From NCBI GenBank assembly GCA_043808015.1, contig JAZDFI010000008.1, positions 13,271-77,270 on the forward strand: 64,000 nucleotides of DNA, written 5' to 3'. A model generated the notes under the pieces. The model worked only from the letters and a program-made list of their open reading frames with translations. It did not search any database and was not told the origin of the DNA. The position numbers and the translations under genes were made by a program. Within the stretch, counting starts at the first letter, position 1; each line of letters begins with the position of its first letter. This document shows, in pieces, positions 24,337-25,554 of this stretch. The stretch is from Candidatus Aenigmatarchaeota archaeon. Its GTDB lineage: Archaea > Aenigmatarchaeota > Aenigmatarchaeia > QMZP01 > QMZT01.

Positions 24337-25554
24337 ATGGCGAACGAGGACATTCGGAAGCGACGGCTGAAAGATATAGTCGAAGAACTCGACAACTTCC
24401 GCGGGCGCCACACGGAGCTAATATCTGTTTACATACCAGCAGGATTCAACCTCTACAAGGTGGTCGAGCAGATAAACAGCGAGAAATCTACGGCCCAGAA
24501 CATAAAGTCGAAGACGGTTCGCAAGAACGTCATGTCCGCGCTGGAGCGCATAACACAACATCTCAAGCTCTACAAGCAGACGCCTCCGAATGGCCTGGTC
24601 ATTTTCGCAGGCAACATTTCCGAGCGTGAGGGCGTTGACGACATAGAAATATACGCTCTGGAGCCGCCGGAGCCGCTTAACCAGCGGCTTTACAGGTGCG
24701 ACCAAAAGTTTGTCCTTGACCCGCTGAAAGACCTCATACGCGAGCGCGAGATATTCGGCATAGTTCTTATAGACAAGTCAGAGGCCGACATCGGCCTGCT
24801 GCACGGCAAGAAGGTCAGGCCGCTCAAGCACCTGGACTCGATGGTGCCGGGCAAGACTGAAGCGGGTGGCTGGTCGCAGGCACGATACGCTCGAGTGCGC
24901 GAAGGCCTGCTGAACGACTTCATGAAAAAAGTCGGCGAAATCGCTTCCCAAAATTTCAGCGACCAGAAGGATTTGCTGGGCGTGATTGTAGGAGGACCCG
25001 GCCCGATAAAGGAAATGTTCGCGAGAGGCGATTTCCTGAGATACGACTTCAAGAATAAAATAATCACGGTAGTCGACACGTCTTATATGGGCGAATACGG
25101 CCTCGAGGAAGCGGTCAATCGTGCCGAGGAGGCGCTCAAGGAAGCGAGCGTCATGAAAGAGAAACGAATTCTCATCCGCTTTTTCAACGAGCTCGGCAAG
25201 GATTCCGGCCTGGCGGTATATGGTCTCAAAGAGACCGTGGAAGCGCTCAAATCAGGAGTCGTCGAGTTGTTAATGGTTTCAGAGCATTTGGACTGGGTTA
25301 AAGCAAACATAAAATGCCTCAATTGCGGCGAGGAAAGGGAAGTCGTAATGCTGCGGGACAAGCTGGAGAGCCTGAAATGCGAAAAGTGCAGCGAGCTCTA
25401 CGAGATTCTGGCAGAGAAAGACCTTACGGACGAGATAATCAAGATGGCCGAGGAAATGAACACGAAAGTCGAGATGGTTTCCGCCGACACGAAGGAAGGC
25501 GCGCAACTGAAAGACATGGGCGGAATCGGAGGGATTCTCAGGTATAAGGCTTAG
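24337..25554 (+). CDS. prf1: Peptide chain release factor aRF1 (eRF1 homolog) with an atypical GGQ region (GGWSQ)
   Basis: NIKS codon-recognition motif (TAQNIKSKTVR); domain-2 VPGKTEAGGWSQARYARVR aligns to canonical VPGKHKAGGQSARRFERL; C-terminal Zn ribbon CLNCG...CEKC. Confidence 0.85.
   Translation: MANEDIRKRRLKDIVEELDNFRGRHTELISVYIPAGFNLYKVVEQINSEKSTAQNIKSKTVRKNVMSALERITQHLKLYKQTPPNGLVIFAGNISEREGVDDIEIYALEPPEPLNQRLYRCDQKFVLDPLKDLIREREIFGIVLIDKSEADIGLLHGKKVRPLKHLDSMVPGKTEAGGWSQARYARVREGLLNDFMKKVGEIASQNFSDQKDLLGVIVGGPGPIKEMFARGDFLRYDFKNKIITVVDTSYMGEYGLEEAVNRAEEALKEASVMKEKRILIRFFNELGKDSGLAVYGLKETVEALKSGVVELLMVSEHLDWVKANIKCLNCGEEREVVMLRDKLESLKCEKCSELYEILAEKDLTDEIIKMAEEMNTKVEMVSADTKEGAQLKDMGGIGGILRYKA

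Follow-up and report, generated by a model that had tools for sequence, protein, structure and literature searches.

The window studied here, a 64,000-nucleotide stretch of DNA from a Candidatus Aenigmatarchaeota archaeon (assembly GCA_043808015.1, contig JAZDFI010000008.1, positions 13,271 to 77,270 of the forward strand), carries a gene for the archaeal class-I release factor aRF1 in which the Gln of the catalytic GGQ motif is replaced by Trp. GGQ is, to our knowledge, the usual textbook case of a motif that every class-I release factor shares, in whichever domain of life, and the N5-methylation of its Gln is likewise described as universal. Our best explanation, which we hold with a probability of about 0.7, is that the encoded protein is the organism's only class-I release factor and a functional one; it would be a genuine ortholog of aRF1, with Trp fixed within the lineage at the Gln position and with the backbone of the loop doing the chemistry. 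The identity of the protein, its single copy, conservation, selection and distribution, and the co-absence of the glutamine methyltransferase Mtq2 were established directly. It appears that the supposedly universal GGQ rule is broken in nature by a factor that works.

An aRF1 ortholog with a GGW loop

The gene occupies 24328..25554 on the + strand (stop codon included) and appears in the list of open reading frames (ORFs) with 408 codons from the GTG at 24328; an ATG at 24337 offers an alternative start. The first-pass annotation of this DNA had described an aRF1 with an NIKS motif that aligned throughout to the family, and our searches bear this out. The aRF1_eRF1 equivalog model TIGR03676 matched with 476.6 bits against a cut-off of 234.7 and was spanned from model position 2 to 402 of 403. 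Three Pfam domains were found on the same strand: eRF1 domain 1, for stop-codon recognition (residues 18-136, 24379..24735; PF03463, 65.8 bits), eRF1 domain 2, the catalytic M domain (residues 143-272, 24754..25143; PF03464, 124.8 bits), and eRF1 domain 3 with the archaeal Cys-rich insert (residues 275-407, 25150..25548; PF03465, 86.1 bits). The translation places NIKS at residues 58-61 (24499..24510, + strand) and, together with the ortholog alignment, the YxCxxxF motif (YRCDQKF) at residues 122-128 (24691..24711, + strand). N[IV]K[SDN] was retained in all 105 aligned orthologs, whatever their Q, W or M state; YxCxxxF was also found in 105 of 105, and its Y, C and F are invariant columns of our alignment A1.

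Positions 24859-24882 read GAA GCG GGT GGC TGG TCG CAG GCA in frame and translate to E A G G W S Q A, with the loop motif GGT GGC TGG TCG CAG at 24865..24879 (+ strand) encoding G180, G181, W182, S183 and Q184. HMMER aligned the loop without a gap to the aRF1 structure 4af1 and to human eRF1 (1dt9), placing 'gkteaGGWsqaryarvr' opposite 'gkqrkGGQsaqrfarlr'. W182 (TGG, 24871-24873) falls on the Gln position, the Ser is retained and a Gln follows at +2. The first-pass annotation had offered two descriptions, either Trp in the place of the catalytic Gln or a two-residue insertion displacing that Gln; the ungapped alignments confirm the former and show the insertion to be wrong. What stands of the displaced-Gln wording is the Gln at +2, which gives the GGxSQ known from VLRF-1-type relatives. 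Alignment A1 shows no variation in the two glycines, the Ser or the Arg residues that follow.

The solved Haloarcula aRF1 (PDB 4af1) matched the window protein in HMMER with an E value of 2.5e-79. An AlphaFold (AF2) model built on 41 orthologs had a mean predicted local distance difference test (pLDDT) score of 86, and the structures closest to it were aRF1 and eRF1, with 4af1 as the best Foldseek match (E 5.9e-40) and a template-modelling (TM) score of 0.79 to the eRF1 of the eRF1-eRF3 ribosome complex 5lzt. The structural modelling that had been suggested for the GGQ loop therefore recovered the overall aRF1/eRF1 fold; the G-G-W tip was modelled at pLDDT <50, i.e. as flexible, and a helix was predicted from residue 183 (residue 180 in model numbering). 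The equivalog score, the three domains and fold, and the NIKS and YxCxxxF motifs all place the protein in aRF1, with GGW standing in the ungapped alignment where GGQ with its methylatable Gln would be expected. Judged by its sequence, the window protein is an aRF1 ortholog by descent with a variant catalytic motif, rather than a canonical GGQ factor.

Compared with canonical aRF1/eRF1 (TIGR03676; PDB 4af1, 3agk, 1dt9), the window protein has the same three domains, length, NIKS and YxCxxxF, and it shares the GG-x-S..R[FY].R loop with the helix and the Cys-rich C-terminal insert. It differs in having Trp for Gln, Gln for Ala/Ser at +2 and Tyr for Phe at +5, and the cognate Mtq2 expected of the canonical system is missing from the window genome. 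The GG-x-S-Q loop is identical to that of acVLRF-1 and aVLRF-1 (PF18859), and in our census Trp was the commonest x in clear acVLRF-1 proteins. However, acVLRF-1, which is found mainly in Actinobacteria and Chloroflexi, has no stop-codon domain, whereas the window protein has all three domains; aVLRF-1 lacks the C-terminal domain and bears a long N-terminal coiled coil, an extension that the window protein does not have (PMC6514570). The protein therefore carries the VLRF-1 loop without the VLRF-1 architecture. Its PF18859 score was only 46 bits, compared with 477 for the aRF1 model, and it grouped with the GGQ aRF1 of its own phylum. Because of this three-domain architecture, the weak PF18859 score and the grouping within the phylum, the likeness of GGWSQ to VLRF-1 is, on sequence grounds, convergent and not inherited. 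Pelota/Dom34 (TIGR00111), a paralogous family, shares the central and C-terminal domains and likewise lacks a catalytic Gln; it differs in its Sm-like N-domain and poorly conserved loop, where the window protein has the aRF1 N-domain and a strict GG-W-S. The TIGR00111 score of the window protein (79.9 bits in hmmscan, 77.8 in the genome search) lies below the cut-off of 177.65 and reflects the shared domains only.

The source genome (G000) is a metagenome-type assembly of 934 kb in 39 contigs, with an estimated completeness of 90.7%. A canonical aRF1 elsewhere, which the first-pass annotation had recommended looking for, was not found: a genome-wide search for a second eRF1-type domain returned only one eRF1_2 match, the window aRF1 itself, and neither a tblastn paralog nor a PF00472 bacterial release factor nor a further acVLRF1-like match was present in the 934 kb. 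Long ORFs of the genome close with all three stop codons (TGA 214, TAA 147, TAG 92). Compared with the aRF1 of a congener (G003), the nonsynonymous divergence (dN) was 0.043 and the synonymous divergence (dS) 0.644, a dN/dS of 0.067. By this measure the aRF1 gene is under strong purifying selection.

Distribution of the Gln-position residue and of Mtq2

We searched 371 Aenigmatarchaeota genomes for the motif, using a degenerate DNA pattern whose output includes the bases matched. An alignment against orthologs of related lineages had been proposed as a check on the Trp, and GGW recurs there: the motif was readable in 80 of the 91 genomes of the window's order, 73 of which read GGW and 7 GGQ. 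The Gly and Ser codons on either side of the fixed TGG show synonymous variation, with Ser changing between TCN and AGY, and contigs of relatives from two other studies also keep TGG between synonymous differences at 24864 and 24876. Outside the order, GGW was found in families f18, f22 and f24, GGM in f19 and the large family f21, GGF in f17 and GGA in a single f18 genome (G107). Families f7-f16 and f25-f28 read GGQ, as did the five genomes sampled from f37-f40. Within lineages the Gln-position residue stays constant, as W in one and as M in another. Recoding of UGG was considered and rejected, as sister lineages have ATG, TTT, GCA or TAT at the same codon; a single reassigned codon is ruled out because the codons behind the non-Gln residues are unrelated to one another.

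We built a maximum-likelihood tree from 105 aRF1 sequences, with motif columns kept in and support given only by the Shimodaira-Hasegawa-like approximate likelihood ratio test (SH-aLRT). It gathered the W/M/F/A families in a single clade (support 98), distinct from that of the window's order (support 99). One further W sequence (G203) stands apart among GGQ sequences, and on this topology it is a third origin of W. Inside the window's order, the GGQ sequences fall into two clades within an unresolved section of family f5, a placement compatible with either several Trp origins or a regained Gln. Across the 36,145 genera of a census, Aenigmatarchaeota alone contained close relatives of the domain; the Trp carriers with a likeness of at least 40%, 54 in all, fit genera of this phylum, and most of the weaker Trp carriers are probably bacterial acVLRF-1. 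The few aRF1 retrieved from Nanobdellati, Woesearchaeota, Pacearchaeota and Nanoarchaeota were all GGQ.

Archaeal Mtq2 methylates the Gln of GGQ in aRF1 and has been proposed to be present in all archaea (PMC6144793). We searched for Mtq2-like enzymes, HemK-related methylases with NPPY, using TIGR00537 and found no candidate in the source genome, where the best match (36.9 bits) was a KsgA-like gene; tblastn of this genome with the Mtq2-like proteins of two GGQ genomes of the order (G038 and G029) gave nothing better than E 0.002. A Trm112-like ORF of 72 aa is present in the window's genome, and Trm112 serves several methyltransferases (PMC6144793). Mtq2-like matches of 79-133 bits, full-length or truncated by contig ends, were obtained in six of the seven GGQ genomes of the order (G038, G321, G320, G324, G328 and G029), with NPPY in both of those inspected, and the sole GGQ genome of the order without a match (G331) is 58% complete. 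Among the GGW genomes of the order only G034 rose above the TIGR00537 cut-off, with a match that lacks NPPY. Two genomes (G320 and G321) were scored as Mtq2-positive while inteins still hid their aRF1 motif, and both then read GGQ; three intein-bearing genomes scored as Mtq2-negative read GGW. Outside the order, by a hand tally, TIGR00537 matches at or above the cut-off were found in 56 of 71 GGQ genomes vs 1 of 72 non-Gln genomes.

A methyltransferase was also observed in one GGW genome (G005, locus L037, 1045-2088, + strand): it has 348 aa, NPPY and a long N-terminal extension, and scores 62.8 bits on the Mtq2-like model.

In some genomes, inteins interrupt aRF1 exactly between W/Q and Ser, as in GGW|C...HN|SQARY and GGQ|C...HN|SAARF. 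They were seen at this site in at least ten Aenigmatarchaeota genomes, and records from Nanoarchaeota and Woesearchaeota show the same insertion point, at GGQ|C. The site at W/Q-Ser is shared by both allele types and is therefore a conserved one. Full-size inteins of 492-510 aa contain Intein_splicing, LAGLIDADG_3 and HTH_3 domains, begin with Cys1 and end in His-Asn, followed by Ser; they include those at L047 (998-2515, - strand), L048 (811-2340, +), L049 (988-2517, -) and L050 (840-2345, +), and further aRF1 intein loci are L196, L198, L200, L201, L203, L185 and L192-L194. Mini-inteins of 135 aa occur in G313 and G318. Some Aenigmatarchaeota also have short extra aRF1-like genes of 228-332 aa with GGQ, GGS, GGY or GGF (loci L095, L096, L098, L113, L123 and L125, in genomes G126, G181, G160, G295, G292 and G286); no such gene was found in the window's genome.

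Proposed peptide release without the GGQ glutamine

We infer that the GGW protein releases peptides, which its single copy, the purifying selection on its gene and the use of all three stop codons support indirectly, and we propose the following route. The stop codon would be read by the unchanged domain 1, the GG-X loop would enter the peptidyl-transferase centre as usual, and the main-chain amide of residue X, which may be any residue except proline, would position the hydrolytic water. A large hydrophobic side chain (W, M or F) would take over the packing and water selection otherwise performed by N5-methyl-glutamine. With no Gln to methylate, Mtq2 would be useless and lost; alternatively, Mtq2 may have been lost first, favouring the replacement. 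The Gln two residues on, in GGWSQ, may help without being required. According to the published studies summed up in PMC4691834, the critical catalytic group is the main-chain amide of the GGQ Gln, which coordinates the water; release is abolished by Pro alone at this position, the two glycines give the loop a conformation that other residues do not allow, and the Gln side chain with its N5-methyl group packs the pocket and selects water. If the backbone amide, and not the Gln side chain, is what matters, a GG-W loop could still catalyse release. The residues found in nature (W, M, F and rarely A) are mostly large and hydrophobic, which would fit a packing role free of methylation.

The laboratory GGQ mutants of RF1, RF2 and eRF1 that PMC4691834 summarises, among them those of Shaw & Green 2007 and Santos 2013, carry the same message, namely that chemical catalysis does not come from the Gln side chain; they differ in being engineered and generally unfit in vivo, whereas the non-Gln residue here is natural and selected in a sole factor. 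A GGW sole factor without Mtq2, with GGM and GGF in its sisters, would be the in-vivo counterpart to the backbone-catalysis view, and if the Gln is indeed dispensable these lineages are a natural experiment showing what it is for. The GGW, GGM and GGQ factors offer a direct way to test the contribution of the side chain and the methyl group. Annotation rules that call Gln-less homologs 'inactive' would misjudge these proteins, which public records name as ordinary aRF1. No report of GGW or GGM release factors, or of archaea without both Mtq2 and the Gln, was found in a full-text search that misses most subscription journals.

Several observations weigh against a working GGW factor that has dispensed with Gln and Mtq2. 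In-vivo studies cited in PMC4691834 treat GGQ as essential, and the packing role that we propose for Trp concerns a loop modelled at pLDDT <50. At 90.7% completeness, a second factor could conceivably lie in the unassembled part of the genome. Pelota, too, was not found in the source assembly, where the Pelota model and the Pelota of the congener G003 matched the aRF1 gene only; a Pelota-like gene is present in most relatives, congeners included, and its absence here is probably an assembly gap. Outside the order, 15 of the 71 GGQ genomes, some of them incomplete, had no Mtq2 match. The association between GGQ and Mtq2 comes down to only two independent contrasts on well-supported branches, or four on all branches, with p >=0.5, although all of the two to four contrasts point the same way. 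In genus g49, which carries GGQSQ (GGQSQM in the aRF1 of G044-G047), four of five genomes lacked an Mtq2-like match. The same genus, a possible intermediate, hints that the +2 Gln and the loss of Mtq2 may precede the loss of the first Gln, along a path from GGQSA to GGQSQ, on to the loss of Mtq2 and lastly to GG[W/M/F]SQ.

The most substantial rival to backbone catalysis with Trp is that Gln184 has taken over as the catalytic glutamine and Trp182 is a mere spacer. GGxSQ is the catalytic-loop motif of aVLRF-1 and acVLRF-1 (Burroughs & Aravind 2019, PMC6514570), and clear PF18859 members read G-G-[W 429, S 204, F 120, Q 96]-S-[Q 813/927], with GGWSQ the commonest form. A Gln at +2, usually with Tyr at +5, is present in 61 of the 74 non-Gln aRF1 of the tree set, and GGQSQ occurs in the phylum as a plausible intermediate (G044, G055, G057, G058, G072 and G076). 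Yet the +2 Gln is absent from 14 of the order's 67 GGW genomes, which read GGWSA[N/S] or GGWSSN; GGMSA and GGMSS also occur, and a +2 Gln is frequent in ordinary GGQ factors (729 of 2685 carriers). Since the length of the loop is unchanged, the model would put Gln184 two residues behind the tip, at the start of the predicted helix, and the glutamine methyltransferase is missing. On balance we consider a shifted catalytic Gln unlikely. A second rival would make the GGW factor a decoder only, one that reads stop codons and recruits partners while hydrolysis is slow or is left to an unrecognised or host-borrowed factor. DPANN genomes are reduced, the cells studied here, with their tiny genomes, are probably host-dependent and might tolerate such a factor, Pelota was not found in the source assembly, some Aenigmatarchaeota have the short extra aRF1-like genes, and the GGQ Gln is reported, in work cited in PMC4691834, to be essential in vivo in model organisms. 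But no other eRF1-like, VLRF-like or bacterial release factor gene was found in the genome; the glycines, the Ser and the following Arg are invariant, as expected of a loop that still enters the peptidyl-transferase centre; and the fixation of the Gln-position residue within lineages points to a selected role rather than decay. We regard this division of labour as very improbable.

The first-pass annotation had itself left three outcomes open, namely a sequence error, an inactive paralog or degenerate duplicate, and an unusual catalytic solution. Although this DNA derives from a metagenome-type assembly in 39 contigs, a sequence error is excluded because the same codon is conserved across about 70 independent assemblies. 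For the read-level check that had been suggested, no sequencing run was found to contain the window's own sequence (the best shared 0.08 of its words) and no RNA run with it was listed; four runs yielded contigs of relatives only. More broadly, an artefact of sequencing, assembly or binning, or a decaying pseudogene, is vanishingly improbable: the codon recurs in the 73 related genomes and in the independent contigs of other studies, the frame is intact with a dN/dS of 0.067, and GGWSQ is present in at least 104 cluster representatives from public databases, each annotated simply as 'peptide chain release factor' (104 of 116 database proteins, gathered by word matches to residues 150-215 and so biased to GGWSQ forms). 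A spare paralog is excluded because no second factor was found, the tree makes the protein an ortholog of canonical aRF1 and the gene is under purifying selection. The sequence evidence favours the remaining outcome, an unusual catalytic solution.

23S rRNA and tRNA genes

The 23S rRNA gene of the window lies at 48693-51828 (+ strand), and the part of interest is at about 51100-51520. The strands of the peptidyl-transferase centre depart there from the archaeal consensus, with GGGGGUAAUGG for GGGGAUAACAG and UUCUCCGCCGUCGG for ACCUCGAUGUCGG. We take the changed positions, in E. coli numbering, to be 2448, 2452, 2453, 2497, 2499, 2500, 2503 and 2504. Related changes are common to GGQ, GGW and GGM lineages, and the strands of a GGQ member of the order (G038) equal those of its GGW order-mates. 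No W-specific rRNA change was found at what are presumably positions 2450-2453, 2497-2506, 2583-2585 or 2602. A W-specific rRNA compensation was therefore rejected, the 23S changes being shared across GGQ, GGW and GGM lineages and so part of the phylum background. C at the presumed position 2504 was seen only in the window's order. A broader proposal can be framed, in which the Gln is dispensable across the phylum, having been replaced at least three times with Trp, Met or Phe and Mtq2 discarded, maybe enabled by a remodelled peptidyl-transferase centre (23S A2451-A2453 and C2499-U2504) with which the release factor co-evolved; this we offer tentatively, with the odds leaning somewhat against it.

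Helix 89 of the 23S rRNA is broken up by an insertion (window about 51215-51380) that measures about 190 nt and may be an intron; it is shared with four relatives (G003, G004, G337 and G032) and absent in many others. Split matches in this 23S region in many other relatives suggest rRNA introns at other sites.

Using aragorn, only 9 tRNAs were predicted in the source genome, and 18 when introns were allowed. This low count suggests many intron-bearing or split tRNAs. One prediction outside the window, a 'tRNA-Stop(tta)' at G000:C7:37143-37287 (- strand), has its intron placed inside the anticodon and is probably an ordinary tRNA with a misplaced intron.

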